Positions 1,000 through 56,864 of a stretch of 64,000 nt of DNA are shown here, piece by piece. The translations under genes were made by a program, and so were the position numbers. Location: contig CAVWCX010000024.1 in the NCBI GenBank assembly GCA_963753595.1, positions 64,001 to 128,000 of the forward strand, written 5' to 3'. This stretch comes from Candidatus Methanoperedenaceae archaeon. GTDB lineage: Archaea; Halobacteriota; Methanosarcinia; Methanosarcinales; Methanoperedenaceae. Position 1 is the stretch's first letter, and the number at the start of each line of letters is the position of its first letter. Below the pieces are notes generated by a model. The model worked only from the letters and a program-made list of their open reading frames with translations. It ran no database searches and was not told the DNA's origin.

Positions 1000-2871
1000 A
1001 TGGATAATTTGACTGAATCAAAGAAGGTTATGGTAAAGCATCCACTTCGTATGGCTTTGACTGCCCCCTTCGTGATGATCATTATTGCGACTGTCGGGCT
1101 CACAGGTTATATCGCTTTTATAAATGGACAGGCAGCCGTAAACAATATAGTGGAACAACTTTTCTCCGAAATAGAGATTCGCGTGGAACAACACATGGAC
1201 AGTTACCTGGGCACCGCCTTTATGATCAACCAGTTAAACCTGAATTCAGTATTATCAGGACGGTCAAACAGCAGTGAACTGGAAGATTTGGCTCAAAATT
1301 ACTGGGAAAGGGGGCTATTGTTCCCGGGTTTCGGAACAATGGGTTTTGGAAATGACAAAGGTGAAATCGCCGGGTCTAACGATGTGAACAAAATAATGGT
1401 GATAGCCAATCAATCGCCAACAGGTATAGTCCTTCACCGCTATGCTGTTGGAGATGATGGGAAACGAACTGATAAAATAGTGAGCGAGACGCGAAATTAT
1501 GATGCCCGCACCAGGAGCTGGTATCAAACCGGTGTTAAGGCAAAACAGCCGGCATGGACTGAAATCAACGCTGCTCTGGCAGGACCATGGCTTGCCCTTT
1601 CGGCTGTGACGCCATATTATGGAAAGGATAATGGTCTTATTGGTGTATTTTATACCGATGTTCCACTTTTGCAAATAAACCAGTATCTACAAAATATAAC
1701 CATTAGCCCTCATGGACAGATGTTCATCATGGAGAACAATGGCTTAATTGTAGCATCGTCCACTCCCGAGCAGCCTTACCTCATCACAGGTGACCAGATA
1801 GAAAGGCTTAATGCATCTTCCAGTTCCCAGCCGCTGATCGCTTCTGCTGCGCGGTATCTCACGGGGCAGTTCGATGTGGGCAAAATACCCAACCATTACA
1901 AATCCTCTTTTGACTTCCAGGGAGAGAGACATTTTGTGCATGTCAATTCCTACAATGACGCGCGGGGGTTGGATTGGAAGATCGTAATGGTTGTTCCTGA
2001 GTCGGACTTTATGGCACAAATCACTCAAAACAATCGCAACACCCTTGTGTTCATCATTATATCAGCGCTTTTTTCAGTAATCGTATCGGCTCTCCTGGCT
2101 CGCCGTATCACTCGTCCGATAACAAATCTATCCCGATCCGCAAAAGCACTGGCCAATGGTGATTATGATCAAAAGCTGGAGATAAAAAGTGAGGATGAAT
2201 TAGGGGAATTGACTGGTGCCTTCAATGTCATGGCTGTAAAACTCAAGGAAAATACGGTCTCGCTGCAAGAAAGCGAAGAGCGCTTCCGTGCACTGGTTGA
2301 GCAGGCACCCGAAGCAATACTTGTTCTTGATTGTGATAATTTCATGTTCGTGGATGCCAATAAGAAAGCTGAGGAGCTGTTCGGATGCAGGCGCGAAGAA
2401 CTCCTCAAATCCGGGCCACAACAGTTCTATACCTCAAACCAGTTTGATGAGAAGCCAGTTTCCCAGACGATGCAGGAAAAAACACAACGGGCGCTTGCAG
2501 GAGAAACGGTGAGTTATGAGCGGCTAGTCAAAAGCACCGATGGCAAAGAACATTTATGCCAGGTGTGGCTGACGAGATTACCTTCTGCAGATCGAAAATT
2601 TGTCCGTATCAGTTATATTGATATTACCGAAAGCAAGCGGGCGGAAGAAGAAGTGCGAAAATACCGCGAACATCTCGAGGAACTGGTCAAAGAGCGCACT
2701 GCACAAGTGCATCAGAAGAATGAAGAGCTTGAAAAGTTTAACAAGTTCTTTGTGGGGCGTGAACTCAAGATGATAGAACTTAAAAAGAAGATAGCAGAGC
2801 TTGAGAAAGAGATAGGGGACCTGAAGAAATCTGTGGAAAATGATGTAAAGGAAGTGGGACACAATGATTGA
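1000..2871 (+). CDS. Membrane sensor: TM-Cache-TM-HAMP-PAS, kinase-less, coiled-coil tail
   Basis: Two TM helices; dCache motifs YDARTRSWY and DWKIVMVVPESDF; HAMP (RITRPI...DELGELTGAFNVM); PAS; same tail as the upstream gene. Confidence 0.85.
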   Translation: MDNLTESKKVMVKHPLRMALTAPFVMIIIATVGLTGYIAFINGQAAVNNIVEQLFSEIEIRVEQHMDSYLGTAFMINQLNLNSVLSGRSNSSELEDLAQNYWERGLLFPGFGTMGFGNDKGEIAGSNDVNKIMVIANQSPTGIVLHRYAVGDDGKRTDKIVSETRNYDARTRSWYQTGVKAKQPAWTEINAALAGPWLALSAVTPYYGKDNGLIGVFYTDVPLLQINQYLQNITISPHGQMFIMENNGLIVASSTPEQPYLITGDQIERLNASSSSQPLIASAARYLTGQFDVGKIPNHYKSSFDFQGERHFVHVNSYNDARGLDWKIVMVVPESDFMAQITQNNRNTLVFIIISALFSVIVSALLARRITRPITNLSRSAKALANGDYDQKLEIKSEDELGELTGAFNVMAVKLKENTVSLQESEERFRALVEQAPEAILVLDCDNFMFVDANKKAEELFGCRREELLKSGPQQFYTSNQFDEKPVSQTMQEKTQRALAGETVSYERLVKSTDGKEHLCQVWLTRLPSADRKFVRISYIDITESKRAEEEVRKYREHLEELVKERTAQVHQKNEELEKFNKFFVGRELKMIELKKKIAELEKEIGDLKKSVENDVKEVGHND

Positions 2872-5728
2872 TCTGGAAAACGCAAGGAACGAACTTGTAA
2901 ATGCACTTGAACGGGTCAATGTGCACGATCATCTTTGTTTGATCTACGAATCACTTGAGGAACAGTTGGCAGCAGTCATACCTTTTTTCAAAAAAGGTTT
3001 AAAGGGCAATGAACAATGTGTATATATCGTTGATGACAACACTGCGCAGGCTGTTTTAGATGCAATGCGCGCCGAAGGCATTGAGGTTGGTTCTGCGATC
3101 GGATCCGGCGCATTGAAAGTTATTACAAAACGTGATTCATATCTAAAAGAGGGATATTTCGATCCCGATTCAATGATCCAATTTCTCAAAGAGGCTGTAG
3201 ATTCTGCAAAAAAAGCAGGTTTTCGTGCGCTTCGGGTTACAGGCGAAATGACTCAGGCGCTTGGTAACGATCCTGGCGATGAACGATTGATCGAATATGA
3301 GGCGAAACTGAATTATTTTGTTCATGAAAATGATGTCCTGATAATATGCCAGTACAACCGCAAACGTTTTTCTCCTGAGGTCATCATCAATGTGATCCGC
3401 ACTCATCCGTATGTAATTTATGGTTCTTTAGTGTGTGAAAACTTTTATTATGTCCCCCCTGATGAGTTCCTCGGGCCTAAAAACAGGCAAATTTCCATGG
3501 AAGTTGAGAGGCTGCTGAAAAATATCCAGGATTATGAACGTGCTGAGAAAAAGTTGCGGGAGGTTTCTTCATACACTCGAAGCCTCATCGAAGCAAGCCT
3601 TGATCCGCTCGTTACTATCAGCCTTGATGGCAAGATCACAGATGTGAATAAAGCCACTGAATTAGTGACAGGTGTATCCCGGGAGGAACTTATCGGCAAG
3701 GATTTCTCGGATTATTTCACAACGCCTGAAAAAGCAAGAAAAGGTTATCAGGAAGTATTCGAAAAAGGATTAGTCAGGGATTATCCGCTTGCTATTCGGC
3801 ATATCTCAGGAGGCTTAACTGATGTCCTGTACAATGCATCGGTGTATAGAGATGCTGCAGGTAATATTGCCGGTGTATTTGCAGCAGCAAGAGATATCAC
3901 CGAGCGAAAGAATGCACAAGAAGCACGCTTGCGGCTTGCCTCCATCGTAGAGTTTTCTGAAGATGGTATAATTGGCAAGACAATAGACGGTCTAATCGTG
4001 AGCTGGAATCCTGGTGCGGAGAAATTATACGGTTATAGTGAAAAAGAGGTTATCGGCAAACCGATCTCAATTCTCATTCCACCAGGTCATTTTGATGAAA
4101 TGCCGGCAATTCTTGAAAGAATAAAGTGCACAGAAACAATAGAACATTATGAAGCCGTCAGGATCAGGAAAGATGGAAAAAAGATCGATGTATCTTTAAC
4201 CATATCCCCGATCAAGGATGAAGAAGGCAGGATAGTAGGCGCCTCGACTATTGCCCGTGACATTACAGAAAAAAAGAAAATAGAGAAAAAGTTAAGAAAT
4301 GCATCATTATATGTCCGCAATCTGATCGAAGCGAGTCTTGATCCGCTTGTCACTATCAGCCCTGATGGCAAGATCACGGACGTGAATAAAGGAACAGAAT
4401 TAGTGACAGGTATATCTCGCGAGAAACTTATTGGTAAGGATTTCTCAGATTATTTCACGGAAAAGGACAAAGCAAGAAAAGGTTATCAGGAAGTATTCGA
4501 AAAAGGATTTGTCAGGGATTATCCGCTTGCTATCAGGCATAAATCCGGGAAAATCACAGACGTTCTCTATAATGCTTCCGTTTATAAGAACGAGGCTGGG
4601 GAGGTGGAGGGAGTTTTTGCAGCTGCAAGGGATATCACACAGAGAAAGCTGGCAGAAGAGCAGCTTCGAATAACTTCTCTCTATGCGCGGAATCTTATCG
4701 AAGCAAGTCTTGATCCTCTTGTGACAATCAGTCTTCAGGGTAAGATCATGGATGTTAATAATGCCACTGAACTTGTAACTGGTGTTCCTCGTGAAGAACT
4801 GATAGATAGCGATTTCACAAATTATTTCACTGAACCGGAAAAAGCAGGAAAAGGTTATCAGGAAGTGTTTGAAAAAGGATTTGTCAGGGATTATCCGCTT
4901 GCTATCAGGCATAAATCCGGGAAAATCACAGACGTTCTCTATAATGCTGCCGTGTATAAGAACGAGGCTGGAGAAGTGCAGGGAGTTTTTGCGGCTGCAA
5001 GAGACATAACAGAGCGCAAGAATGCTGAAAATGAACTGCGAAGGATTCGTGACGAATTAGAAATAAGGGTCAGGGAGAGAACTTCAGAACTCATGAAATC
5101 TCTCGCTGAAAAGGAGCTTCTGATAAAAGAAGTTCACCATCGCGTAAAAAACAACCTCCAGATCGTATCCAGTATGTTTGAGCTCCAATCAACATATATG
5201 AAGGATAAAAAGGCCATAATGGCATTCATGGAAGGCCGGAACCGGGTAGCTACAATGGCGCTTATACATGAAAAACTCTATAACTCAGGAGATCTTTCAA
5301 GGATCAGATTTGCCGAGTACATTGAAGAGCTGACATCAAATATTTTCTTTTCATATGGGGTCAATACAGAAAAAATAAAACTGAATATAAATGTCGGGGA
5401 TGTTTTTTTTGATATTAATACAGCGATACCCTGCGGGCTGATAATCAATGAACTTGTTTCTAATTCAATTAAACATGCTTTTACAGACAGGAATAATGGT
5501 GAAATAAACATTGAACTTCATCCTGAAAATAATGACAAATATCTTTTGAAGATCAATGATAATGGCAGGGGATTTCCTCCAGATCTGGATTTTCAAAAAT
5601 CAGATACTCTTGGACTGAAACTCGTAATCACCCTGACAAATCAACTTAACGGGACAATAGAGCTTGACAGGACCGCAGGCACAAAATTTACAATTATGTT
5701 TTCAGAATTAAAATATAAAGAGAGATGA
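2864..5728 (+). CDS. MEDS-PAS(x4) sensor histidine kinase (HisKA_2 type)
   Basis: MEDS (HDHLCLIYE, RVTGEM, CQYNR); repeated PAS units LIEASLDPLVTIS; H-box KEVHHRVKNNLQ; NELVSNSIKHAF; DNGRG; LGLKLV. Confidence 0.95.
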   Translation: MIDLENARNELVNALERVNVHDHLCLIYESLEEQLAAVIPFFKKGLKGNEQCVYIVDDNTAQAVLDAMRAEGIEVGSAIGSGALKVITKRDSYLKEGYFDPDSMIQFLKEAVDSAKKAGFRALRVTGEMTQALGNDPGDERLIEYEAKLNYFVHENDVLIICQYNRKRFSPEVIINVIRTHPYVIYGSLVCENFYYVPPDEFLGPKNRQISMEVERLLKNIQDYERAEKKLREVSSYTRSLIEASLDPLVTISLDGKITDVNKATELVTGVSREELIGKDFSDYFTTPEKARKGYQEVFEKGLVRDYPLAIRHISGGLTDVLYNASVYRDAAGNIAGVFAAARDITERKNAQEARLRLASIVEFSEDGIIGKTIDGLIVSWNPGAEKLYGYSEKEVIGKPISILIPPGHFDEMPAILERIKCTETIEHYEAVRIRKDGKKIDVSLTISPIKDEEGRIVGASTIARDITEKKKIEKKLRNASLYVRNLIEASLDPLVTISPDGKITDVNKGTELVTGISREKLIGKDFSDYFTEKDKARKGYQEVFEKGFVRDYPLAIRHKSGKITDVLYNASVYKNEAGEVEGVFAAARDITQRKLAEEQLRITSLYARNLIEASLDPLVTISLQGKIMDVNNATELVTGVPREELIDSDFTNYFTEPEKAGKGYQEVFEKGFVRDYPLAIRHKSGKITDVLYNAAVYKNEAGEVQGVFAAARDITERKNAENELRRIRDELEIRVRERTSELMKSLAEKELLIKEVHHRVKNNLQIVSSMFELQSTYMKDKKAIMAFMEGRNRVATMALIHEKLYNSGDLSRIRFAEYIEELTSNIFFSYGVNTEKIKLNINVGDVFFDINTAIPCGLIINELVSNSIKHAFTDRNNGEINIELHPENNDKYLLKINDNGRGFPPDLDFQKSDTLGLKLVITLTNQLNGTIELDRTAGTKFTIMFSELKYKER
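3570..5020 (+). repeat. Three near-identical intragenic PAS repeats
   Basis: LIEASLDPLVTIS...FAAARDIT occurs three times with high nucleotide identity (e.g. GGTTATCAGGAAGT.TT.GAAAAAGGA). Confidence 0.85.
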
Positions 5729-5732
5729 TAAG

Positions 5733-6506
5733 ATGGTAAATGAAAAGATCCTGATCGTTGAAGACGAAGGCATTGTTGCCATGCATATACAGAACAGCCT
5801 GAAAAACCTGGGCTATAACGTTGTTGGTATAGCTTCTTCAGGTGAAGAAGCCATTGAAATGGCAAAAAAAAATCGCCCGGATATGGTGCTTATGGACATC
5901 GTATTAAAAGGGATGATAGACGGCATAGAAGCTGCAGACAACATCCGTAACAATTTTAATATCCCGACGGTCTTTCTTACAGCCTATGGTGATGAAAGCA
6001 CATTGAACAGGGCTAAAATAACCGAACCTTTTGGGTATTTGCTTAAACCATTTAAAGAACGGGACTTGCATATTGCCATTGAAATCGCTATATACAAGCA
6101 TAGAATTGAGTCCAGGTTAAAAGCAATAGACCGGTTCCTTTCCACTATACTGAAAAGCATAGGCGACGCAATTATTACCACTGATAAAAAGGGATTAATT
6201 ACGTTTTCTAATTCTGCTGCCGGAGGAATGACAGGATGGGATATGGAAGAAGCAGTAAATAAAAATATTACTGATATATTTAATATTGTCAATGAACGAA
6301 CACATGTTCCATTTGAAAATCTTGCGGACAGGATAATTCGTGATGGAGTTGATCTTGACCTTCCGCCAGATACAATACTAATTTCAAGGGATGGGAAAGA
6401 ACTACCTATTGAGGGAAGAGGAGCCCCCATGATGGATGAAAAAGGCGAAATTGAAGGTATGATATTTAGTTTCAGGGATATCACCGGTCGAGGGAAGATA
6501 AAATAG
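5733..6506 (+). CDS. Response regulator (REC-PAS)
   Basis: KILIVEDE, DMVLMDI, FLTAY, YLLKPF, followed by a PAS domain. Confidence 0.93.
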   Translation: MVNEKILIVEDEGIVAMHIQNSLKNLGYNVVGIASSGEEAIEMAKKNRPDMVLMDIVLKGMIDGIEAADNIRNNFNIPTVFLTAYGDESTLNRAKITEPFGYLLKPFKERDLHIAIEIAIYKHRIESRLKAIDRFLSTILKSIGDAIITTDKKGLITFSNSAAGGMTGWDMEEAVNKNITDIFNIVNERTHVPFENLADRIIRDGVDLDLPPDTILISRDGKELPIEGRGAPMMDEKGEIEGMIFSFRDITGRGKIK

Positions 6507-7169
6507 GAGCTAAATAAACACCGCTGATTTCTTGAAGAGATTTTTTTTCATCCTGACACTAATATTTATAGTCAAAAACCTAATTTATTTTACATATATC
6601 GTTATCATCTTGCGTCCTTTGAAGTGAATGATTTTTGTTCCCTTAAAGTTAGTTTTAATTGTTTGGTTTTTAACTATAATTCAACGGTCTCGCTTTTTAT
6701 GCTCCTCAATTTGTATTCTTGTCATTATAATTATCATTTTTTGTACCAAATATGTATATCAATAATTATGATTATACTAATCATTGACAAAAAGCGTCCG
6801 AGAAAAATGAGAATAAAATCCAGAGAAGATCATGACACAAAACCACACCGAAATGATAAATGAAAAGACTGAAAAAATAAATGAGGAGCAGGAACATAAT
6901 AAGGATAGAACAGGAAGATTTTTGCCCATCTTTTTCTGGACAGATTGAACACAATAAACGAAGGAAATTTATATGAATGAAAATGAAAAACAAAAAACTG
7001 ACAAACAAGATACGGATTCGAGGATCGCCCCGAAATCACTTGATACAGGTTCAAATGGACAGTTCCAGCAATACATGACTTTTTTTGGAATATACCATAT
7101 TCCGAAATAATTTTAAACTCCACTGCGGTCAATCAGATAGATATAATAACTATCTGAAAAATAGATGAG

Positions 7170-9818
7170 ATGACTGACATGGAGTTCAAAGAACACAGTT
7201 CAGCAAAAAATTTCATTGTATCCTCTATTTTCTGGCTCATACTGTTTACTACATTTGGTTTTATTGTTGCAATAAAATTTTTCGCCCCCGAATTCCTCGG
7301 GCAGATTTCAGTTCTCACCTTCGGCCGCATGCGCCCCATGCATGTGAACGGTGTGACGTTCGGATTCCTCTCAACCGGGCTTATAGGAATCGCTTATTAT
7401 ATCATCCCGAAGCTGTCAGGAACGAAATTGTACAGTGAAAAACTGGGGAATCTTACTGTTTTCCTGTGGAATATTGCCGTCACCTGTGGGACTGTACTCC
7501 TGGCGCTTGGATACACGCAGGCAAGGGAATATGCAGAATATATCTGGATAATCGATGTAGCAATAATCATCACGCTCTTATTGATCGGATATAATATTTT
7601 CAAGACTATCCAGAAAAGGACAGAAAGAAAATTGTACGCATCCACCTGGTATGTCATGGGAACATTCCTTTCGTTCCCCATCGTTTACTTCATCGGTAAT
7701 GTAATGTGGCATCCTGATACAGGTTCCCTGCAGGGAGCCGTGGATGGTGTTTTTAACTGGTTCTATGGGCATAATGTCCTGGGATTATGGTTTACAACAC
7801 TTGGAATTGCAGGATGGTACTATTTTATTCCAGTCATAACAAAACGTCCTCTTTACAGCCACCTGCTTTCAATGATCGGCTTTTTTTCAATAGTATTTGT
7901 CTATACAGGTGTTGGAGGACATCATCTTCTCCAGGCGCCCATTCCTGAATGGCTAAAGACCATAGCTATCGTGAATAGCGGCCTGATGATGGTGCCAGTA
8001 CTTGCTTTTATCACGAATATTCTTCTTACCATGCGCGGGAGATGGGATTGTTTTATCGAAAGTATTCCACTGCGTTTTATGCTTATTGGTGTGTTTTTGT
8101 ATTTTCTTGCCTCTTTGCAGGGTACTTTCCAGGCATTTCGCGAAACTAACATGTACCTGCACTTTAGCCAGTGGACTGTAGGACATGCCCATATTGCTCT
8201 CCTTGGGGGTTTTGGGTTCCTGGTTTTTGGCGCTGTATATTTCCTTATCCCCAGGGTCACAGGTAAGGAGATCTATTCAAACAGGCTCATGAGCTATCAT
8301 TTCTGGTTCACCTTTCTTGGTTTCATATCATTTTTCTCTATAATGACCATTATGGGCCTTATCCAGAACTCAGGCTGGTTCCAAAACATCTCTGTTGCAA
8401 CCGTATTGCTACAATTGAAGCCTTATTTCATAGCAAGAGCGCTTGCAGGCGGAGCAATAGTTGCAGGCCAGTATATATTTTTCTATAATATAATTATGAC
8501 TCTCAGGTCACCGGCCAGAGCAATTCCAGAGCCGTCCTTGGCAACGCCCAGGCCGGAAAGAAAATCACAAAAGGTTCAAAAATACAGGGAAAGCGCACCA
8601 CTTTTTGCGATCGGGGCGCTTGGGCTGTTCCTGACCATGTTTTTCATAGTTGTCATTCTTCCGTATCTTCTTATGAATTATCCCCCCTCAGAAATCTCTC
8701 ATCCTTATTCCGGCGACCAGGCACGAGGGCGTGAAATCTACAAAAGCAATGGCTGCCTGTATTGCCATTCCCAGTTCGTCCGCCAGCAGGACTCGGGCAT
8801 GGGAAGGACATCCCTGCCCGGGGATTATTTCTACGACCGCCCTCATCTTCTTGGAACAGAAAGAACCGGGCCTGACCTTGCCCAGATTGGCGGGCAAAGA
8901 CCCCCTTTATGGGATGTCATGCATCACAGGAACCCGCGCTCGGTAAGCCCCGGTTCCATAATGCCTAATTTCTCCTACCTCTCGGATCAGGACTTGCAGG
9001 ATCTTAAAGCCTATATAGACGGGCTCGGGAACCTTAACCTTGAAACACAGGATTTCCAGCCCCTTGTTCCTCAACTATATTCAGGGCGCCAGAACATCTA
9101 TAACGAAACGATCGCAAACGCTAATTCCAGCAACGAATCCATGACTGAATATGCCGGACTGGTAGCGGAAGGGAAAATCCTTTTTTCGCAGCGCTGCCTG
9201 CCATGCCATGGAGCATCCGGCAACGGGCAAGGCCCTTATGCGCGCCATGTTAACCAGCATCCTGCCAATCTTAATGACAGGATATCAAATTTCCCCGGGG
9301 TTGATTATAATTTCTGGCGTGTAATGGAAGGTGTCCCGGGAACAGCAATGCCGCCCTGGAAAATCTCGCTGACCGAAGACGCAATATGGAAGATAATCTC
9401 TTATGAAAAAACTTTCGTTGACGGGGTCGTAAGAGTCATTCCAGGAGATTATTCAGATAGTGAAGCAGAAGATTTCGGGAATCGGGGGATCAGATCACCT
9501 GTTGTCCAGAACGATACGAATTATACCGAAGGGATGAAACTGTTCAATCTCTACTGCGCGCAGTGCCACGGCATTGATGGGCAGGGTGATGGCCCGGCTT
9601 CTGTGTATATTAATCCCGAACCTGCAAACTTTACAGAGACAAATAATGATTTCAAGACGCAGGGACAGTGGTTCTGGAAAATAAGTGAAGGTGTGGAGAC
9701 TACAAACATGCCGCCCTGGAAATATGTACTGACCGAAGAAGACAGATGGAAAGTTATATATTATATACAGAAGAATTTTTCCGAACCAGGCATTTTTGAA
9801 GAGAAATGGAGGTCCTAA
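7170..9818 (+). CDS. ccoNO: cbb3-type (C-family) heme-copper oxidase fusion: CcoN + CcoO + two further c-type cytochrome domains
   Basis: CcoN ligands RMRPMHVN, WFYGHNVLG, YTGVGGHH, WTVGHAH, plus REYAEY. CcoO motifs GCLYCHSQFVR, GTERTGPDLA, NPRSVSPGSIMP. Extra hemes CLPCH...AMPPW and CAQCH...NMPPW. Confidence 0.9.
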   Translation: MTDMEFKEHSSAKNFIVSSIFWLILFTTFGFIVAIKFFAPEFLGQISVLTFGRMRPMHVNGVTFGFLSTGLIGIAYYIIPKLSGTKLYSEKLGNLTVFLWNIAVTCGTVLLALGYTQAREYAEYIWIIDVAIIITLLLIGYNIFKTIQKRTERKLYASTWYVMGTFLSFPIVYFIGNVMWHPDTGSLQGAVDGVFNWFYGHNVLGLWFTTLGIAGWYYFIPVITKRPLYSHLLSMIGFFSIVFVYTGVGGHHLLQAPIPEWLKTIAIVNSGLMMVPVLAFITNILLTMRGRWDCFIESIPLRFMLIGVFLYFLASLQGTFQAFRETNMYLHFSQWTVGHAHIALLGGFGFLVFGAVYFLIPRVTGKEIYSNRLMSYHFWFTFLGFISFFSIMTIMGLIQNSGWFQNISVATVLLQLKPYFIARALAGGAIVAGQYIFFYNIIMTLRSPARAIPEPSLATPRPERKSQKVQKYRESAPLFAIGALGLFLTMFFIVVILPYLLMNYPPSEISHPYSGDQARGREIYKSNGCLYCHSQFVRQQDSGMGRTSLPGDYFYDRPHLLGTERTGPDLAQIGGQRPPLWDVMHHRNPRSVSPGSIMPNFSYLSDQDLQDLKAYIDGLGNLNLETQDFQPLVPQLYSGRQNIYNETIANANSSNESMTEYAGLVAEGKILFSQRCLPCHGASGNGQGPYARHVNQHPANLNDRISNFPGVDYNFWRVMEGVPGTAMPPWKISLTEDAIWKIISYEKTFVDGVVRVIPGDYSDSEAEDFGNRGIRSPVVQNDTNYTEGMKLFNLYCAQCHGIDGQGDGPASVYINPEPANFTETNNDFKTQGQWFWKISEGVETTNMPPWKYVLTEEDRWKVIYYIQKNFSEPGIFEEKWRS

Positions 9819-9820
9819 AA

Positions 9821-10018
9821 ATGCTTCCCGACCATGCTATGACAGACGCTGTGATGTCCATTGACCCTGCCGACTATACGATAATCCTGATTGCCAGTAT
9901 CATAATTCTCCTGGTATTTCCGGCTCTTCTTTATTGGGGCTGGAAAAAAGGCCAGTTCAAGGATATTGAAGATGCAAAATACAGGATGATAGAAATGGAG
10001 ACCGAAAATGCCCATTGA
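9821..10018 (+). CDS. ccoS: cbb3 oxidase maturation protein CcoS/FixS
   Basis: TM helix followed by WGWKKGQFKDIEDAKYRM, matching the CcoS pattern W...GQFDD.E....RIL; directly follows the oxidase gene. Confidence 0.8.
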   Translation: MLPDHAMTDAVMSIDPADYTIILIASIIILLVFPALLYWGWKKGQFKDIEDAKYRMIEMETENAH

Positions 10019-10262
10019 AATATCGCAGGGGCAGTTGCCTTCACTTCTCCTGTTATCCGTGCTTCTTGCAGCATTTATGATCGCGTTATATTTGAGTTTA
10101 AAGAGCGGGGATAAATATTCGGTAGAAGATGCACAAAGGGATGCAGTAAGTTTTGCAGATGTGGTCGAGGAAGCGGATGGCCCTATGACAACATTCCTTA
10201 TTGCCGCATTTATAGTATTAATTATCTGGGCTGTTGCCTACCTGGTCCTATACCTTAAATAA
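10008..10262 (+). CDS. Small membrane protein resembling the CcoP/FixP N-terminal anchor, without hemes
   Basis: DVVEEADGPMTTFLIAAFIVLIIWAVAYLVLY resembles FixP_N DGIEEYDNPLP.WW...F...II.A..YL; no CXXCH. Confidence 0.65.
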   Translation: MPIEISQGQLPSLLLLSVLLAAFMIALYLSLKSGDKYSVEDAQRDAVSFADVVEEADGPMTTFLIAAFIVLIIWAVAYLVLYLK

Positions 10263-10294: not shown

Positions 10295-10723
10295 CTATTT
10301 CTTCTTGCGGTTCTCAATCTCTTTCTTGATCCATGGGCCTACATCAAGTCCATGAACAAGGCCTTTCAGGTCATCCTTCAGGTTGCTTGGCTTTATTTTG
10401 ATCAGCCAGCCTTCTCCATAAGGGTCTCCTTTTAAGAGATCAAGATCATCCTCGATATTTTCATTGACTTCTGTTATAATACCTGTTACAGGCATCAACA
10501 GGCCTCCTACCCATTTTGCTGATTCAAGCGACCCGAAGGCCTCTCCTGCCTCGAATTCGTCATCTTCAAGGGGAAGGTCAATAAATTCAATATTTCCTGC
10601 TGCTTTTGCTCCATAGGCATCAAGACCAACTGTAACAGTACCATTGTCTTCGATCCTTGCCCATGTGTGATCTTTAGTATAATACAATTCTTCCGGAAGT
10701 TTATGTCCCTCTATTTCGACCAT
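10295..10723 (-). CDS. gcvH: Glycine cleavage H-like lipoyl carrier protein
   Basis: YYTKDHTWA, VGLDAYG, lipoyl site GSLESAKW, DPYGEGWLIKI. Confidence 0.9.
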   Translation of the reverse strand: MVEIEGHKLPEELYYTKDHTWARIEDNGTVTVGLDAYGAKAAGNIEFIDLPLEDDEFEAGEAFGSLESAKWVGGLLMPVTGIITEVNENIEDDLDLLKGDPYGEGWLIKIKPSNLKDDLKGLVHGLDVGPWIKKEIENRKKK

Positions 10724-10766: not shown

Positions 10767-11189
10767 TTAATTATCCGCATATCGTTCGCGTTCTTTAGCG
10801 ATCAATCCGGTATAGTATCCTGCTGCTTCTTCAACTTTCATTACCTTGTTTTCATCAAATTTCCCTTTTACTTTCACGATCCACTCATTGTAAGGGTCAC
10901 TGTTGATAACATTCGGGTCATCCCAGAGTTTTTCATTTACTGAAATGACTTTTATATCAAATGGAACTGATATCTGGGACACTGCCTTTATGGTTTCATA
11001 TGCCACAAGCATGTCCCCCTGTTTAATTGATTCTCCTGTTTCAGGAAGATCAATGTGTACTATCCCTTTGGATAATGATTGGCCAAGTTCGGTTATTCCT
11101 ATGAGGATCTCTCCATTTTCAGGCTTTAGCCATACATGATTTTTCATGTAATACCGATCCTCAGGGAAATCAAACTCATAGGCCTTCAT
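10767..11189 (-). CDS. gcvH: Second glycine cleavage H-like protein
   Basis: Likely start MKAYEFDFPEDRYY at 11189; GITELGQ, lipoyl-type YETIKAVS, INSDPYNEW. Confidence 0.85.
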   Translation of the reverse strand: MKAYEFDFPEDRYYMKNHVWLKPENGEILIGITELGQSLSKGIVHIDLPETGESIKQGDMLVAYETIKAVSQISVPFDIKVISVNEKLWDDPNVINSDPYNEWIVKVKGKFDENKVMKVEEAAGYYTGLIAKERERYADN

Positions 11190-11426
11190 ATTGCCTACAA
11201 TCGAAAGATAGGTATAAAATACTTTTGCATGGATTTTTAGCCCTGGTGAGCATTGAAGAGTATTGTCCCAGAGTTGGTTCGTGTTCGTCTGGTTCGTGGT
11301 TAATTTATTTCCTATGGGCGTGCTTGTCATAACAAACGCAAACTTAACTATTAATAGACAAGTTTAAGTATTTAGTAGTTTAATATATGGATATGGTGAA
11401 CAATAAGTGGAGATAAAATATGAAAC

Positions 11427-21556: not shown

Positions 21557-21796
21557 ATATAAAAAGCTCTTTCGGCGGAAATGGAACTCAATGTTATTAT
21601 TATTTTTTAAGCGTATCATCTTTCAAGGAACGGGCGCGCCTGACGGCGGAAAAATGGGGCTAAAGCCCGATCAGGGAATGACCCTGCGCCGCCTGCGGGC
21701 GGATGGATGATCCGGGATTGTTTTAAATAAAAGTTTGGGATTATATTGTTTTTTATAGGTAAACTTTTTATCTATGTAAATTGTGTATATGATTAT

Positions 21797-22582
21797 ATGG
21801 AAAATAATTTAAAACTTTCCACAAATTACATCATAAAATCGTTATTTGAGCAGGAATATTACTATTTCACAGTGCGTGAGCTTGCGGGTTTATTAAAAGT
21901 CCCTGTTGAAAAAGCATATACTATTGTTGCAAGGCTAAAGGACAGAGGGTTTATTAAACCCGTAGAGAGGGGTAAGTATCTCTTGCTTGGTTTTGAACCA
22001 GAACACGTTCTTTCCAATCCGCTTTTTATAGCATCAAGGGTTGTTTATCCTTCATATGTGAGCTTCTGGAGCGCCCTGAATTTCTACGGCTTTACAGAAC
22101 AGGTTCCGATCATGGTTTTTCTTGCATCTGCCAGGAAAAAGAAAGAGTTAGAGTTCAACAATTCCAGGTTCAAATATGTGCTGATGAATCCGGAGAAGTT
22201 TTTCGGATACAGGAAAGAGAGAATAGGAGAACTTGATTTCCTGATCGCAGAAGAAGAAAAGGCAGTCATTGATAGTCTTTACCTCCCTGAGAATGCAGGC
22301 GGAATGGCTGAGGTGATAAAAGCGGTTTATAATGCAAAAGATAAAGTTGATCCTGAGAAACTATTTGCGTATGCATCAGCTATGAAGAACAGGAGCCTGT
22401 GCTCAAGATTAGGGTACCTGCTTGAGAGATTCGGCGCTGATGCAGGGATGTTATTGGAATGTTCGTCGAATGAGTACGTCAAGCTTGATCCGGCAAGAAA
22501 GAAGAGCAAGGTCTGGGATAAAAAGTGGCATGTTAATGTGAATATGAACGAAGAAGAGCTCCTTGGATGGAGGGAGACTTAG
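21797..22582 (+). CDS. abiEi: Type IV TA AbiEi-family antitoxin
   Basis: N-terminal wHTH (RLKDRGFIKPVERGKY), SYVSFWSALNFYGFTEQVP, AEEEKAVID, RLGYLLE, KKWHVNVN. Confidence 0.85.
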   Translation: MENNLKLSTNYIIKSLFEQEYYYFTVRELAGLLKVPVEKAYTIVARLKDRGFIKPVERGKYLLLGFEPEHVLSNPLFIASRVVYPSYVSFWSALNFYGFTEQVPIMVFLASARKKKELEFNNSRFKYVLMNPEKFFGYRKERIGELDFLIAEEEKAVIDSLYLPENAGGMAEVIKAVYNAKDKVDPEKLFAYASAMKNRSLCSRLGYLLERFGADAGMLLECSSNEYVKLDPARKKSKVWDKKWHVNVNMNEEELLGWRET

Positions 22583-23880
22583 GGATTGCCGAAAAATAAC
22601 TTATCTAAATTAATTCCCTTCCTCTTTTGGGGAAAGAGAATAATTCCATTTTGGGTGTAAAGAATGGTATTCTATCTTCAATCTTGCCATATCTTCATCA
22701 GAGAATTTAACTCCTTTATTATATTCCTTTTCATCTAATAGCGATGCCACAGTAAGACCTTTGTTTGTCTTTGTGCCACTGATCAGTTCAATAATTGTTT
22801 CAAAACTAACGAGCGGTTTCCCCTTCCAATTCATTGTAATGAATGAGAACATGCGATGTTCTATCTTGTTCCATTTGCTTGTCCCAGGAGGGTAATGGCA
22901 TACGGTAATAGGTATTTTTATTTGGTTCACCAATTCTTGTAAATGAAATTTCCAGCCTTTATTGCGACTTCCATTGCTCCCCCCACCATCTGCACATATC
23001 ATCAGACCTTTTGCATCTGGATAATTATTTCTTCCAAACATAAGCCACCATTGCCTTATGCTTTCAACGGCAAATTCGGACGTATCATAACTCATTCCCA
23101 CATTTACCATTCCTTCATTTCTCTTAAGATCATAAATCCCATATGGTGTCGCCCTTCCAATCCCAAGTGAAGGAAAATCATACACATTTACTTCTTTTGC
23201 CTTGCCTTTTTTCTCCCATGTTCTTCCAGGATTTTTGAATTCTCCTACATTTTCTTTCTTTTTTGCATCAACTGATATTACGGGATACTCCTGATTTATA
23301 AATTCTTTAGCTTTTTCGTTTATATACCTGAACTGGGCATCTCTTTCGGGAACTGAAGAACCTTCGATGTTTTTCTTATTGGCCTGAAGCGAGTAATCGT
23401 TTTCCTTCAATAAACGTCCTACTGTATCTGGATCGATTTTATGTTTTAGCTTTTTCAATTCATCAGCGATCTTGTAGGTTGATTTGTTTGTCCATTTCAG
23501 CAGGCTCATTGGGTCGCCTGAGGTGTTTTCATCCATTATTTTTTCAAGATCTCCAATTATTTCGGGATCTTTTATTTCTACCTTTTTTCTTCCTCCTCCA
23601 AGTGCTCGAAGTCTTTCTGGAGGTTTAAGTTTCTCTGACGTTTTGAGTTCCTCTATCCCTTTATGGATAGTCGAATGGGACATGCCTGTTAATTCTTCAA
23701 CTTTTGAGACTCCACCCCACCCAATTTCAAGTGCTATGGCTCCTGCAAAACGTCTTGCTTGAACTTCATCCGCTCCTGATAGGGCTTTTAGCCACCATGT
23801 GTACTCCTTGTTAGTATCCATGCCACTATATATGATGGCTTAGATTATATAATTTACTAATTTATTTTTAGGTATTGCCT
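22581..23880 (-). mobile_element. ISAzo13-family insertion sequence between abiEi and abiEii
   Basis: Imperfect IR AGGGATTGCCGAAAAATAA / TTATTTTTAGGTATTGCCT; TTAG at both junctions (22579-22582, 23880-23883). Exact ends are uncertain by a few bp. Confidence 0.8.
22610..23821 (-). CDS. ISAzo13-family transposase
   Basis: GDPMSLLKWTNKS, YSLQANKK, RDAQFRYIN, ISVDAKKKE, ADGGGSNG, HYPPGTSKWNKIEHRMFS, HPKWNY. Confidence 0.93.
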   Translation of the reverse strand: MDTNKEYTWWLKALSGADEVQARRFAGAIALEIGWGGVSKVEELTGMSHSTIHKGIEELKTSEKLKPPERLRALGGGRKKVEIKDPEIIGDLEKIMDENTSGDPMSLLKWTNKSTYKIADELKKLKHKIDPDTVGRLLKENDYSLQANKKNIEGSSVPERDAQFRYINEKAKEFINQEYPVISVDAKKKENVGEFKNPGRTWEKKGKAKEVNVYDFPSLGIGRATPYGIYDLKRNEGMVNVGMSYDTSEFAVESIRQWWLMFGRNNYPDAKGLMICADGGGSNGSRNKGWKFHLQELVNQIKIPITVCHYPPGTSKWNKIEHRMFSFITMNWKGKPLVSFETIIELISGTKTNKGLTVASLLDEKEYNKGVKFSDEDMARLKIEYHSLHPKWNYSLSPKEEGN

Positions 23881-23884
23881 TAGC

Positions 23885-24676
23885 ATGCTGACGAGGAAGC
23901 AAATTGAAAAGATCGCCCTGAAGAACAGGGTGTCGCTATTTACCCAGGAGAGGGACTATGTACAGGCAGTATACCTTAGCCTTCTGTATTCGAAGACAAT
24001 CGGTTTAATATTCAAGGGGGGCACCTGCCTTCGAATTGCTTACAGTTCACCGAGATATTCTGAGGATCTGGATTTTAACTCAAATCTTGATGAAGATGAG
24101 GCATATAAAATGCTGGAAACAGCAGTAAAGGAGCTTGAGTATTTCGGCATCAGGGCACAGATCAGGAACAAGAGGATGTCCAGGTCAGGATTTGGCTTTG
24201 CCCTGAGTTATATGGGGCCCCTATACGAAGGAAGGGATATTACCAAAGGTATGGTAAGAATTGATGTCAGTTTGAGAGGGGAGAACGTATCTGAAGAAAG
24301 AGTAATGGTGCGTACAGAATACGATGATGTAAAGGCATTTGTTATCAGTGCGGCAAGCTTTGACCATATATTTGCGCAAATGGTGAGGGCGCTGCTGGTG
24401 AGAGGAATGGCAAGAGATCTTTATGACCTGTGGTTCCTGCTGGAAAGAGGGGTAAAACCCGACATTGAGTTAATAAACAGCAAGCTTGCTCTTTATGATA
24501 AGAGTTATTCCAGCAAGGAAATGAATGAGCGCATAGCGCAGCTTGAGAAAGGCTGGAGCAAAGACCTTTTACCGCTGCTTGGTGTGGTGGTTCCCTATGA
24601 GGTTGCGACGAAGAGGGTGGTTGATGGGTTGATGTCTATAAGTAAATCTTATCATGGTGGTCGTAATCTTCAATGA
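23885..24676 (+). CDS. abiEii: Type IV TA AbiEii nucleotidyltransferase toxin
   Basis: ERDY, FKGGTCLRIAY, RYSEDLDF, RDLYDLWFL. Confidence 0.88.
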   Translation: MLTRKQIEKIALKNRVSLFTQERDYVQAVYLSLLYSKTIGLIFKGGTCLRIAYSSPRYSEDLDFNSNLDEDEAYKMLETAVKELEYFGIRAQIRNKRMSRSGFGFALSYMGPLYEGRDITKGMVRIDVSLRGENVSEERVMVRTEYDDVKAFVISAASFDHIFAQMVRALLVRGMARDLYDLWFLLERGVKPDIELINSKLALYDKSYSSKEMNERIAQLEKGWSKDLLPLLGVVVPYEVATKRVVDGLMSISKSYHGGRNLQ

Positions 24677-42700: not shown

Positions 42701-43450
42701 TTGGAATCCATTATTCAGGTAAGGGATCTTACCAAAGCGTTCAAATCAAGAAAAGCTAAAATAACAGCAGTGGACCATATCAGTTTTGATGTGAACAAAG
42801 GAGAGATTTTCGGGATGATCGGACCTAACGGCGCGGGCAAATCCACCACATTTGCCATGATGACCACATTAATAAAACCCACAAGCGGCAGTATAAAGGT
42901 TGCAGGTTTTGATGCTGTAAACGAAGATGAGAGGATAAGACCAGTCATAGGTATAGTTCCACAGAAGCAGAGCCTTTACCCGGACCTTACCGCCAGGGAG
43001 AACCTTGAGCTTATGGGCAACCTTTATGATGTTCCAAAAAAACTCATGGAAGAAAGGATCGAGTATTACCTGAAACTGGTCCATCTTGAAACTCATGCGG
43101 ACCGTTTTACGGGCGGCTTCTCCGGGGGGATGAAGCAGCGCCTTTCCGTGATCAGCGCGGTGATACATGACCCACAGATAATCTTCTGGGATGAACCAAC
43201 GACGGGCCTTGACCCGCAAACAAGGCAAGCCATCTGGAAACTTGCACGGAAGTTCAATTCGGAAGGAAAAACCCTTATTTTCACTACACATTACATGGAT
43301 GAGGCAGATAAATTCTGCGACAGGGTCGCGATAATGAATGCCGGTAAACTGATGGCCCTTGACACCCCCGGGAACCTGAAAAAAACATCAAACAGTGAGA
43401 GTCTTGAAGATGTTTTTATTCACCTGACAGGCGAGGAGATACGTGATTGA
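42701..43450 (+). CDS. ABC transporter ATP-binding protein
   Basis: GPNGAGKST, FSGGMKQR, DEPTTGLDP. Confidence 0.95.
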   Translation: MESIIQVRDLTKAFKSRKAKITAVDHISFDVNKGEIFGMIGPNGAGKSTTFAMMTTLIKPTSGSIKVAGFDAVNEDERIRPVIGIVPQKQSLYPDLTARENLELMGNLYDVPKKLMEERIEYYLKLVHLETHADRFTGGFSGGMKQRLSVISAVIHDPQIIFWDEPTTGLDPQTRQAIWKLARKFNSEGKTLIFTTHYMDEADKFCDRVAIMNAGKLMALDTPGNLKKTSNSESLEDVFIHLTGEEIRD

Positions 43451-44564
43451 AATGGATATCAAAACAGAGCTTAGAAAATCCTGGATAATTATGATCAAAG
43501 AGTTTAAACAGATCCTGAGGAAAAAAGCATTCATGATACCGCTATTTTTGTTCCCCATTGTCATGATAATTTTTTTTGGGTACGGCATGGGTGGAACAGT
43601 CAAAAATGTCAATATTCTAGTCATAAACGACGACACAGGTACGGCTTCAAGTTCGCTTGTCCAGGAAATCGGAAACTTCATCCCCAAATATGGCGATGTC
43701 AAAATGTTCTCCATAATTTATACGAAGGATATGGGGCAATCCGAGGCTGAGAAGAAAATAGACGCGGGATTGTATAAAGCAGTTCTCATCATTCCATCGG
43801 ATTACAGCGAGCGCGTGGCAAGAAATGAGAGCGTGACCCTGACGCTCCTGACCGACTCCTCAGATACCACATCAAGCGGCATAATCATTAATTTCATGAA
43901 GCAGTTATTTGCAGGAATATCAAATTCGCGTGTTTCGTTGAAAATTCCCGATATTTACGGCAAACTACAGTACATTGATTTCCTCACACCTGCAATAATT
44001 GCCCTTACGGTGTTCATCGGTACTATCCAGACCATGGGTTATGCGATAGCAGGAGAGAGGCAGGACGGTACCCTTGTTCGCATTATGATGACGCCTGTGA
44101 GCCGTGGAGCCGTAATTCTGGGTAAGACTTTACACCAGCTTGTATTGCAGCTGGCAAGGGCTTTGGTACTGATAGTTGCCGCAATTGTTCTTCTCGGGGT
44201 TAAGATGAACGGGAGCTGGCTGCTTGTTGCCCTGGTCCTGATCATCTTCACATTTGGCGCGGTAGGTCTTGGAATTGCCATATCTGCCGTATCAGAGGAC
44301 ATGATATCTTTCCAGGCGATAAGCATGTTAGTTGCTTTTCCTTCGATGTTTGCAACAGGAGTATTCTATCCTTTAAGCTCTGTTCCGGACTGGATGCGCT
44401 GGATAGCATATTTTGTGCCTCTTACTTACGCTAATGATGCAATGCGTACTATTATGGTCAAGGGGCAGGGTCTGGCCTTTATAGCTAATGATTTGATCAT
44501 ACTTCTTTTCTTTGCGGTTTTTTATTTTGGTTTAGGTGTTTACCTTTTCAGGAGGGAAGCATAA
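43443..44564 (+). CDS. ABC-2 permease with extracellular domain
   Basis: YIDFLTP, ERQDGTL..IMMTPVS, FATGVFYP, PLTYANDAMR. Confidence 0.9.
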   Translation: MIEMDIKTELRKSWIIMIKEFKQILRKKAFMIPLFLFPIVMIIFFGYGMGGTVKNVNILVINDDTGTASSSLVQEIGNFIPKYGDVKMFSIIYTKDMGQSEAEKKIDAGLYKAVLIIPSDYSERVARNESVTLTLLTDSSDTTSSGIIINFMKQLFAGISNSRVSLKIPDIYGKLQYIDFLTPAIIALTVFIGTIQTMGYAIAGERQDGTLVRIMMTPVSRGAVILGKTLHQLVLQLARALVLIVAAIVLLGVKMNGSWLLVALVLIIFTFGAVGLGIAISAVSEDMISFQAISMLVAFPSMFATGVFYPLSSVPDWMRWIAYFVPLTYANDAMRTIMVKGQGLAFIANDLIILLFFAVFYFGLGVYLFRREA

Positions 44565-45572
44565 ATGAAGAAAATAATGAGCATATCATATATTTTACTA
44601 TATATTTCAGTGTATCTTTCAGTCATAATTTCAGGTGCAGCCGGAGCCTATGATTCCCCGCAAACTTATATAATGCCAAGGAGCTTTGAATTCTCAAAAA
44701 ATTACTATAACGTTTATGGGAGTCCGGATATCCAGGCCACGATCATCGGCAGCAATGAATTTGAACGAGGACAGACTGTTACCTTGCTTATCGATCTTAT
44801 GAACAGGGGAAAGTTCCTTGGATTTGATGCAGACAACAGGCCTTCAAATGATAATGAAATATATACCGCAAAGACTGAGATCAAACTTGAAGATAAAATA
44901 GTGGATGCTACAGGGATATCCGCATCGCTGTCGGCATATCCTGGAAGCCCTTTAGAGGTAAAATCCATAAGCCAGCAGGTTGGTTCCATAAGAAGCGGGC
45001 AGAATTCAATTGCGCCCGTGAAATTCGACATTAAGATCGATAAAAAGGCAAAGGCTGGAGAATATACCCTCCTGCTTGACCTCACATACGATTACCAGCA
45101 AAACGTCCAGATAATAGATGCCAATGCCACGCAGCAAACCTATGATGCAAATTACTGGTATGGGATGATGAAGCAGAACCAGACTTTAAAGATCAAAGTG
45201 AAAAAACAGGCACAATTCGAGATCATAAGAGCAAATGGCAGTCTTGTTCCAGGAAGTTCCGGCACAATAGAGATCGCTATCAAGAACACCGGGGAAGAAG
45301 AAGCAAGAGATGTAAAGGCCATAATCACACCTTCTGATCCGATAAGCACCACTGATGATAAGGCATACCTCTATAAAATGGAACCTGGTGACGTGGCTAT
45401 ATCATCATTTACGATCACAGCTGACAGTAAAGCCGTGAATAAAACATATGCTATAGACACAGTCCTTCGATACCAGACACCGGAAGGGGATATCAAATAT
45501 TCCGATATATTGATGGCTCCTGTACCTGTAAGAGAAGTCGGGTTATTTGAAAGGCTGTTCGGATGGATTTAG
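44565..45572 (+). CDS. COG1361-like secreted (S-layer-type) protein
   Basis: Signal peptide; AKAGEYTL.L...Y.YQ; IKNTGEEEARDV; Ig-like repeats; operonic with the ABC genes. Confidence 0.7.
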   Translation: MKKIMSISYILLYISVYLSVIISGAAGAYDSPQTYIMPRSFEFSKNYYNVYGSPDIQATIIGSNEFERGQTVTLLIDLMNRGKFLGFDADNRPSNDNEIYTAKTEIKLEDKIVDATGISASLSAYPGSPLEVKSISQQVGSIRSGQNSIAPVKFDIKIDKKAKAGEYTLLLDLTYDYQQNVQIIDANATQQTYDANYWYGMMKQNQTLKIKVKKQAQFEIIRANGSLVPGSSGTIEIAIKNTGEEEARDVKAIITPSDPISTTDDKAYLYKMEPGDVAISSFTITADSKAVNKTYAIDTVLRYQTPEGDIKYSDILMAPVPVREVGLFERLFGWI

Positions 45573-56579: not shown

Positions 56580-56814
56580 AAATAACAATAGATGAAAAGA
56601 TGAGCAGTAATGGTAATATCATTGTATCAAAAACATTTGAAATTTCATCATTCCAGTAACTGCTTGCCGATAATATTTCTTTGGAAGAAAGTAGCAATAT
56701 CAATAAAATGGTTGCCAGAACACCGCCGATGGCCAAGCCAGTTACTGAGGTCATTGATATGGCGCTTGATACTGCACTGCTAGCACTTGAAACTGAGACC
56801 ACCGCACTTATCAT
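56557..56814 (-). CDS. Small hydrophobic membrane protein
   Basis: Ser-rich N-terminus, two TM segments around LSSKEI; ATG start. Confidence 0.55.
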   Translation of the reverse strand: MISAVVSVSSASSAVSSAISMTSVTGLAIGGVLATILLILLLSSKEILSASSYWNDEISNVFDTMILPLLLIFSSIVIFKISEIL

Positions 56815-56864
56815 TAAATGTTAAATAGAAAACTATATGCATATACTTTTCGTAAGGTGGTAAA

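Follow-up and report, generated by a model that had tools for sequence, protein, structure and literature searches.

Archaea of the family Methanoperedenaceae (anaerobic methanotrophic archaea of group 2d, ANME-2d; order Methanosarcinales) are considered strict anaerobes, for which O2 is seen only as a stressor. We examined what a gene set for a cbb3-type (C-family) haem-copper O2 reductase represents within a stretch of 64,000 nucleotides (nt) from a Candidatus Methanoperedenaceae archaeon (assembly GCA_963753595.1, contig CAVWCX010000024.1, positions 64,001 to 128,000; this whole stretch is termed the window): is the encoded enzyme an O2 reductase or a nitric oxide (NO) reductase, does it belong to the archaeon, and what might it do there? 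A preliminary description, made from the letters of the window, had proposed a laterally acquired cbb3 operon. The reading that we consider likely is that the module at positions 7170-10262 (+) encodes a complete C-family O2 reductase of a non-proteobacterial subfamily, anciently acquired from Bacteria, and most likely removing trace O2 protectively.

The module comprises three genes: a fused oxidase gene, a CcoS/FixS-like gene, and a gene for a protein of 84 amino acids (aa), termed s84. The oxidase gene is a single open reading frame (ORF) of 882 aa (7170..9818, +) joining CcoN, CcoO and two haem c domains; the CcoS-like gene overlaps it by 13 nt and is itself overlapped by the s84 gene by 11 nt. 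The cbb3-type genes are thus located where the preliminary description had placed an operon, but they form one fused gene and two small genes; the separate ccoN, ccoO and ccoP genes that were implied are one ORF, and the 84-aa gene (10008..10262), inside the same coordinates, was absent from that description. The top NCBIfam model for the 882-aa protein is "bifunctional cbb3 subunit I/II" (PRK14485; 436.8 bits, versus a cut-off of 1080), with ccoN, ccoO and ccoP models next; the protein is a member of the cbb3 family in the broad sense, within a divergent subfamily.

The CcoN domain, with 12 membrane helices before aa 450 in an AlphaFold2 model, contains the six histidine ligands (H58, H201, H251, H252, H339, H341) and the helix VII tyrosine (Y245, in YTGVGGHH, six residues before the HH pair) that had been read from the sequence beforehand. 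Residues H58/H201/Y245/H251/H252/H339/H341 align with H60/H207/Y251/H257/H258/H345/H347 of Pseudomonas stutzeri CcoN (3mk7_A). We take H58 and H341 to be the ligands of haem b, H339 that of haem b3, and H201, H251 and H252 those of CuB, with Y245 as the active-site tyrosine and presumed partner in the His-Tyr cross-link. The six-His plus Tyr pattern was kept in all 88 C-family rows of a 90-row alignment, which included three canonical CcoN/FixN genes and two NorB genes from annotated plasmids, each NorB gene coming from a norC-norB-norQ-norD context. In both NorB rows, Ser replaces this Tyr. The glutamate of the NOR-type HxxxE motif, whose absence had also been claimed, is indeed missing when set against the two NorB sequences (HNVLG in the window versus HLWVE); G205 stands at the NorB Glu position, where one canonical CcoN row has Ala. 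Unlike the two NorB loci (L080, L081), the window oxidase has no NorQ or NorD neighbours.

Assignment to the C family agreed across searches, fold and tree. A search of the PDB matched CcoN chains at E 1e-66 to 1e-68 (9g6b_A, 7e-68; 3mk7_A, 1.3e-66), versus 1.9e-9 for NorB. The AlphaFold2 model (mean predicted local distance difference test, pLDDT, 74.5; predicted template-modelling score, pTM, 0.67) shows the 12 helices and a 13th (aa 476-501) ahead of soluble domains that are largely helical; the seven top Foldseek fold matches in the PDB were all cbb3 CcoN chains (template-modelling score, TM, 0.87-0.91), NorB of cytochrome c-dependent NO reductase (cNOR) ranked below them (TM 0.80-0.84, E 1.6e-11), and ba3 oxidases came after NorB. 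The haem-copper oxidase phylogeny that the preliminary description had proposed as a check placed the window protein with CcoN, separating the 88 C-family rows from the two NorB rows with support of 100. Sequence, tree and fold all favour an O2 reductase of the cbb3 type over a NO reductase.

The substrate in the cell could still differ, and NO (or nitrite) might be the physiological one, the enzyme then detoxifying NO that arises from nitrate and nitrite metabolism. C-family oxidases reduce NO in vitro, as stated in the parts consulted of Murali et al. (2024, PMC11214002) and of a review (PMC8780969), and Methanoperedens lives alongside nitrogen oxides. However, the active site is of the CuB/Tyr type and lacks the FeB glutamate of the two NorB sequences, the protein groups with CcoN and not NorB, the oxidase gene is carried also by metagenome-assembled genomes (MAGs) from Fe- and Mn-fed systems, and a dedicated cNOR is tabulated in four of the six C-bearing Methanoperedenaceae genomes in the supplement of Murali et al. 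(PMC11214002). Since most of these tabulated carriers have a separate cNOR, NO detoxification is less likely as the primary role, and we consider it very unlikely that NO is the substrate for which the enzyme is kept.

The remaining redox domains follow CcoN in the fused protein. In the CcoO domain, a single membrane helix (aa 476-501 of the model) precedes a mono-haem c domain whose CXXCH site is CLYCH at aa 529, and CcoO chains in the PDB matched at E 3e-23 to 7e-19 (6xkw_o, 3e-23; 3mk7_B, 5e-21); the mono-haem CcoO subunit is therefore present, as a domain fused to CcoN. Two C-terminal class-I cytochrome c domains follow, with CLPCH at aa 676 and CAQCH at aa 796, so that the three CXXCH sites and CcoO motifs noted earlier are all accounted for. 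These C-terminal domains occupy the place of the CcoP haem domains, joined to the CcoO C-terminus, and Pfam Cytochrome_CBB3 matched the di-haem part at 96 bits in three stretches. The three CXXCH sites were kept in 12/12 full-length archaeal copies. High-affinity O2 reduction fed by c-type cytochromes would most likely be the function of the enzyme. Positions of the module's features are given in Table 1.

Table 1. Features of the oxidase module and of its upstream region (window positions).
Feature	Position	Strand	Basis
CcoN domain	7170..8519	+	aa 1-450; Pfam COX1 aa 12-427, E 3e-82
CcoO domain	8601..9014	+	aa 478-615; Pfam FixO aa 486-612, E 7e-33
Two class-I cytochrome c domains	9015..9818	+	aa 616-882; Pfam Cytochrome_CBB3/Cytochrom_C up to aa 868
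CcoS/FixS-like gene, 70 aa	9806..10018	+	Pfam FixS
s84 gene, 84 aa, two membrane helices	10008..10262	+	FixP_N-like, below cut-off
Purine-rich/TATA-like block AGATAGATATAATAAC	7135..7150	+	Conserved upstream alignment block

The protein encoded by the first of the small genes, a 70-aa single-helix CcoS/FixS-like protein, is a putative cofactor-insertion factor. It matched Pfam FixS at 32.8 bits (cut-off 23.1), which upholds the earlier call of a ccoS-like gene, and the NCBIfam ccoS model at 20.1 bits, under the cut-off of 28.35; FixS was matched by all 14 homologues located 3' of the oxidase gene in related loci, 13 of them over the cut-off and the 14th at 19.9 bits. The s84 gene was seen in 11 of 13 compared Methanoperedenaceae loci, L007 and L011 ending before it. 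Pfam FixP_N, which we take to be the N-terminal anchor of CcoP, was matched by 11 of the 13 aligned members of the s84 family (12 Methanoperedenaceae and one Bathyarchaeia; best E 7.5e-6), with the window copy at 21.7 bits, under the cut-off of 24.9. When an s84 profile was run against the PDB, CcoP N-termini were three of the six listed matches, at non-significant E values of 0.12-1.1; run against 1.84 billion representatives, the profile found 54 relatives at E <= 0.001, of which 52 were 47-152 aa long and the others 1687 and 6111 aa. A complex model of aa 1-620 (the CcoN-O part) with s84 scored 0.87, versus 0.00 for the best control, a mark that 116 of 157 solved complexes and 2 of 215 mismatched pairs attained; from run to run the contacts agreed by at least 77%, and pLDDT of the partner was at least 76 (author-built alignments). 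The model places s84 against CcoN, but its score may reflect likeness only, because CcoN with a CcoP anchor is already a solved complex. Profile matches and complex model taken together, s84 is probably a small membrane subunit, the split-off counterpart of the CcoP N-terminal anchor.

We then consider if the module belongs to the archaeon. The great majority of C-family enzymes are bacterial, the module in the window has three transposase genes and a variable 32-kb segment beside it, and one homologue labelled Methanoperedens (P0015) falls in a bacterial clade, so the module might be a bacterial contaminant, an assembly chimera or a decaying, functionless relic. The genes around it are archaeal, though. 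The marker 8 and mevalonate genes named in the preliminary description are borne out by profile scores of 354 bits for methanogenesis marker 8, 578-603 bits for archaeal HMG-CoA synthase and 671 bits for archaeal thiolase, and the window also carries PGF-CTERM proteins and AglJ-like proteins. The same three-gene module occurs in archaeal context in eight other contigs from different studies; the flanks of these eight loci hold RadA, RPA, thermosome, geranylgeranylglyceryl phosphate (GGGP) synthase (PcrB), CofC/CofH, FEN-1, mevalonate-pathway kinases and menaquinone (Mqn) genes, and the order oxidase, ccoS-like gene, 84-aa gene was preserved wherever the contig was long enough. Because of the archaeal flanks in the eight loci and the archaeal genes in the window, a chimeric contig, which the preliminary description had listed as a way for its reading to fail, is excluded for practical purposes.

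The oxidase itself gave the same answer for the host. The 13 closest proteins among the matches listed were 74-97% identical to it; five of them came from named records, namely cbb3 subunit I of "Candidatus Methanoperedens sp." in three cases, an "uncultured archaeon" entry, and an unlabelled cytochrome c oxidase. At least 14 Methanoperedenaceae records (L001-L013 and L016; one genome per species) contain the gene at 71-89% identity, including records titled "uncultured archaeon" or "Methanobacteriota archaeon" that belong to the same clade. The Methanosarcinales host that had been proposed can accordingly be narrowed to Methanoperedenaceae, by the oxidase clade and by synteny with named MAG records.

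The tree was a quick IQ-TREE run (LG+C20+F+G4) on the CcoN domain, 90 rows by 448 columns, with support from the Shimodaira-Hasegawa-like approximate likelihood ratio test (SH-aLRT) only; it left out the even-numbered loci of L017-L078, the partial copies L011 and L016, and most protein (P) matches. The 13 Methanoperedenaceae rows formed one clade (SH-aLRT 99) on a stem of 0.3. Its sister (support 99) was a group of 34 rows, mostly unlabelled metagenome proteins, including rows labelled Thermoleophilia, Syntrophales and Pelobacter seleniigenes, two Bathyarchaeia loci, and P0015. Next outward came a Chloroflexota/Actinomycetota clade with unfused genes, then canonical CcoN on a long branch (3.38) and the NorB outgroup; the window row sits in a clade distinct from the three canonical CcoN rows, in a tree where the outgroup sample was small (three canonical CcoN and two NorB) and two divergent plasmid rows had long, unreliable branches. 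An archaeal clade nested in a bacteria-dominated radiation supports the lateral acquisition proposed earlier. As a separate observation, P0015 is a 906-aa fused homologue with 54% identity that is labelled "Candidatus Methanoperedens sp." and lies inside the bacterial sister clade; this may represent a second acquisition, or it could be a mis-binned contig.

Composition and substitution pattern were likewise those of a resident, functioning gene. The oxidase gene (GC content 0.457; third-position GC, GC3, 0.488; codon-usage distance 0.116) was inside the range of the core genes of the window. Pairwise ratios of nonsynonymous to synonymous substitution (dN/dS), window versus eight archaeal copies, were 0.05-0.12 in each of the three domains, with synonymous divergence (dS) saturated in the most distant pairs, and none of the 12 full-length archaeal copies had an internal stop. 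The oxidase module is under strong purifying selection in all three domains. When the 186 nt upstream were aligned for the window and eight Methanoperedenaceae loci with differing upstream genes, there was one conserved block of 16 nt, about 25 nt before the ATG, that held six of the seven invariant upstream columns; we regard it as a putative archaeal promoter (TFB recognition element, BRE, plus TATA box) that would give a leaderless or near-leaderless mRNA and would move with the module. Host-like composition and low dN/dS mark the transfer as old and inherited within the family, not a recent local event. The sequence comparisons indicate that the module passed from Bacteria long ago, was then inherited vertically with losses, and has stayed functional, being kept by part of the Methanoperedenaceae; against the single archaeal clade, the host-like codon usage, the archaeal-type upstream block and the intact, selected copies, contamination, chimerism or decay is extremely improbable.

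Several results weigh against a complete cbb3-type oxidase at work in these archaea. The curated equivalog models all scored under their thresholds: ccoN TIGR00780 at 295.5 bits versus 583, ccoO TIGR00781 at 100.5 versus 200.65, and ccoP TIGR00782 at 51.6 versus 179.95. No CcoP chain in the PDB matched the 882-aa protein at E <= 0.001, and in that search the di-haem part was not detectably nearer to CcoP than to other class-I cytochromes c. A CcoP-sized protein (~300 aa) was expected among the s84 relatives and none was found in the 1.84 billion representatives, so that the link between s84 and CcoP depends on sub-threshold matches. The whole subfamily has Gln at the position of a canonical Glu (P. 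stutzeri E323), and pumping behaviour may therefore differ. Genes for ccoG, ccoH, ccoI and Cu chaperones were absent from the window and from the 10-kb flanks of the eight related loci; in bacterial relatives, the oxidase genes have DsbD_2 and a P-type ATPase as neighbours. In the table of Murali et al. (PMC11214002), M. nitroreducens and nitroreducens_A have no C-family oxidase (C = 0); existing physiology is silent on the oxidase because the best-studied laboratory strains are, by that table, without the gene, and this may also explain why the question has gone unasked. Finally, the transcript levels reported in the supplement of Leu et al. (2020, PMC7082337) were low, 0.33 transcripts per million (TPM) for 'Ca. 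M. ferrireducens' and 11.1 TPM for 'Ca. M. manganicus', and came from an anoxic reactor.

A protective oxidase would be expected to work as follows, the electron path and the role being drawn from the established mechanism of the cbb3 family. Electrons from methane oxidation would pass through the menaquinone pool to pseudoperiplasmic c-type cytochromes, would enter by way of the two C-terminal haems c (aa 796 and 676) to the CcoO haem c (aa 529), and would continue over haem b (H58/H341) to the haem b3-CuB centre (H339; H201, H251, H252) with Y245. There O2 would be reduced to water with protons drawn from the cytoplasm. The role would be trace-O2 removal at oxic-anoxic interfaces, shielding O2-sensitive enzymes, with some charge separation inherent to the enzyme.

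A stronger proposal is true energy-conserving microaerobic respiration in which nanomolar O2 is a growth-supporting terminal acceptor for methane electrons. Three residues of the window protein, Y217, S234 and Y311 (P. stutzeri Y223, S240 and Y317; the position of H243 is Gly), are polar in 13/13 archaeal and 3/3 canonical CcoN rows and are A, W and F in both NorB rows. We take these positions to be putative proton-channel residues; our literature search yielded no printed list of such residues for cbb3 oxidases. Their retention and the strong selection on all domains would suit a respiratory enzyme, as would the description of the family as proton-motive, high-affinity oxidases in the parts consulted of Murali et al. 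(2024, PMC11214002); a 2026 review (PMC13046784), in the passages available, credits Methanoperedenaceae with quinones and pseudoperiplasmic cytochromes c and relates that trace O2 changed methane conversion in enrichments. The same passages treat O2 as an inhibitor, however, methyl-CoM reductase chemistry and many cofactors are known to be O2-sensitive, and the transcripts in the supplement of Leu et al. (PMC7082337) were low, though under anoxia. We consider respiration of this kind unlikely as the role of the module, and prefer protective removal of trace O2.

The consequences depend on which of these applies. Conservation, selection and completeness of the oxidase suggest that carrier species can actively consume trace O2. 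Such use would affect their habitat range (redox interfaces, rice paddies, aquifers, membrane-aerated reactors), the response of the methane filter to O2 pulses, and how rates of "anaerobic" methane oxidation are read. A quite unlikely extension is that some Methanoperedenaceae grow on nanomolar O2, oxidizing methane by reverse methanogenesis through menaquinone, cytochromes c and the fused oxidase; if true, this would be O2-respiring archaeal methanotrophy without methane monooxygenase, blurring "anaerobic" and "aerobic" methane oxidation at oxic-anoxic interfaces. The gene also documents bacterial-to-archaeal transfer of a C-family enzyme, and its economical arrangement, with a single polypeptide and two small proteins, might make it convenient for heterologous expression.

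The novelty implied by the preliminary description was overstated, as the gene is already in the supplements of two papers. NCBI names homologous archaeal proteins cbb3 subunit I. Supplement file 5 of Murali et al. (2024, PMC11214002) tabulates C = 1 for 6 of 14 Methanoperedenaceae genomes and for Methanomethylovorans hollandica, and supplement file 2 of Leu et al. (2020, PMC7082337) tabulates K15862 "ccoNO" genes with three CXXCH, whose best UniRef matches are Methanolobus tindarius and M. hollandica. The two supplements thereby point to C-family homologues in cultured methanogens (M. hollandica, Methanolobus tindarius), an observation apart from the window; neither homologue was among the 120 protein matches listed, the 80 loci kept or the 40 records listed from a plasmid search. 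Our literature search found no main text discussing cbb3 or haem-copper oxidase in Methanoperedens or methanogens. The oxidase was unmentioned in the passages available of a comparative-genomics paper (PMC7327174) and of the 2026 review (PMC13046784), and likewise in those of PMC8470020, PMC8280799, PMC13502194, PMC10542353, PMC9012536, PMC12448728 and PMC11264602. The fused oxidase is, as far as these partial sources extend, already annotated and tabulated, physiologically unexplored, and of limited value as a discovery.

The surroundings of the module in the window have features of their own. Upstream (1000-6506) are a HAMP/PAS kinase, a 954-aa MEDS + 4xPAS + HisKA_2 kinase and a response-regulator (RR)-PAS protein; L009 has a different RR-PAS kinase upstream of its oxidase module. 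We considered whether the MEDS-PAS kinase and the PAS response regulator are linked to regulation of the module, and dropped the idea because the other loci do not keep this adjacency. Two tandem GcvH-like (lipoyl-carrier) genes, 10295-10723 (-) and 10767-11330 (-), converge on the module, the second with an N-terminal extension of about 50 aa; the pair was found beside the module only in L001 and L002 (84-95% aa identity), and the window has no other glycine-cleavage genes. In L004 (5305-8152) and L008 (13136-15988), genes for an ABC ATPase, an ABC-2 permease and a protein with an NPCBM_assoc domain lie within about 300 nt 3' of the module, and the orthologous trio (64-89% aa identity to L004/L008) is at 42701-45572 in the window. 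Compared with L004 and L008, window positions 10263-42700 (32 kb) thus look like a variable or inserted segment, which holds the two GcvH-like genes, three transposases, a type I restriction-modification system, toxin-antitoxin pairs and transporters. An ISAzo13-family transposase gene (22610-23821) lies on the opposite strand between an AbiEi-like antitoxin gene (21746-22582) and an AbiEii toxin gene (23885-24676), and the insertion sequence seems to have landed within this pair. Farther along, positions 54985-58142 have a low GC content (0.29-0.35, versus about 0.42 elsewhere) and encode a DUF1616 protein, a CPBP-family protease and a PGF-pre-PGF domain protein; the stretch borders on a glycosyltransferase of AglJ type (AglJ-like) and could be a cell-surface island with a separate origin.

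Compared with known systems, the window enzyme has the CcoN fold (TM 0.87-0.91) in common with canonical CcoNOQP oxidases (P. stutzeri, 3mk7/5djq; Rhodobacter capsulatus, 6xkw), along with the six His, the Tyr, a mono-haem CcoO, two more haem c domains, a CcoS-like factor and, at three positions, polar residues where those of NorB are apolar. It differs in its low CcoN identity (~28%), in having N, O and the di-haem part in one polypeptide, in lacking CcoQ, in encoding a CcoP-anchor-like hairpin as a separate 84-aa gene, in Gln for Glu at the E323 position, in the lack of ccoGHI nearby, and in its archaeal host. The cNOR enzymes (NorBC; PDB 3o0r, 4xyd; Phaeobacter and Azospirillum plasmids, L080 and L081) belong to the same superfamily branch and also have six His and a cytochrome c partner, whereas their NorB has a Glu four residues after the first His, Ser in place of Tyr, apolar channel-like positions, and norQ/norD neighbours.

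Nearer to the window enzyme are unfused relatives of the same subfamily (40-54% identity) with CcoN as a separate gene, in Bathyarchaeia (L014/L015) and in Chloroflexota/Actinomycetota (L017-L078). The order in L015 (7729-13425) is like that of the window: CcoN, CcoO + di-haem, a FixS/FixQ-like 52-aa gene and a FixP_N-like 97-aa gene; the L015 oxidase genes adjoin a cytochrome c assembly gene, and the bacterial locus L017 has an additional DsbD_2 and P-type ATPase. In the tree, the Bathyarchaeia copies lie inside the bacterial clade, a placement that suggests an independent transfer to a second archaeal lineage. Elsewhere, the Sinorhizobium meliloti pSymA locus (L079, 3438-8371) has, besides fixNOQP-type genes, a divergent cbb3-like pair, subunit I and a 554-aa fusion of FixO with a di-haem part; DsbD_2 and P-type ATPase genes come after this pair, which has Gln at the E323 position. 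The ESM Atlas has clusters of the "cbb3 subunit I family" in which bacterial and Methanobacteriota members are mixed. One close parallel is the fused bacterial "cbb3 subunit I/II" (K15862 ccoNO; PRK14485), e.g., P0036, P0043 and P0089 (919-950 aa; labelled Thermoleophilia, Syntrophales and Pelobacter seleniigenes), in which COX1, FixO and Cytochrome_CBB3 follow one another in the same order at similar length and 48-55% identity, within the sister clade; the Methanoperedenaceae proteins differ from these in forming their own clade, in their archaeal-type upstream block, and in their archaeal hosts.

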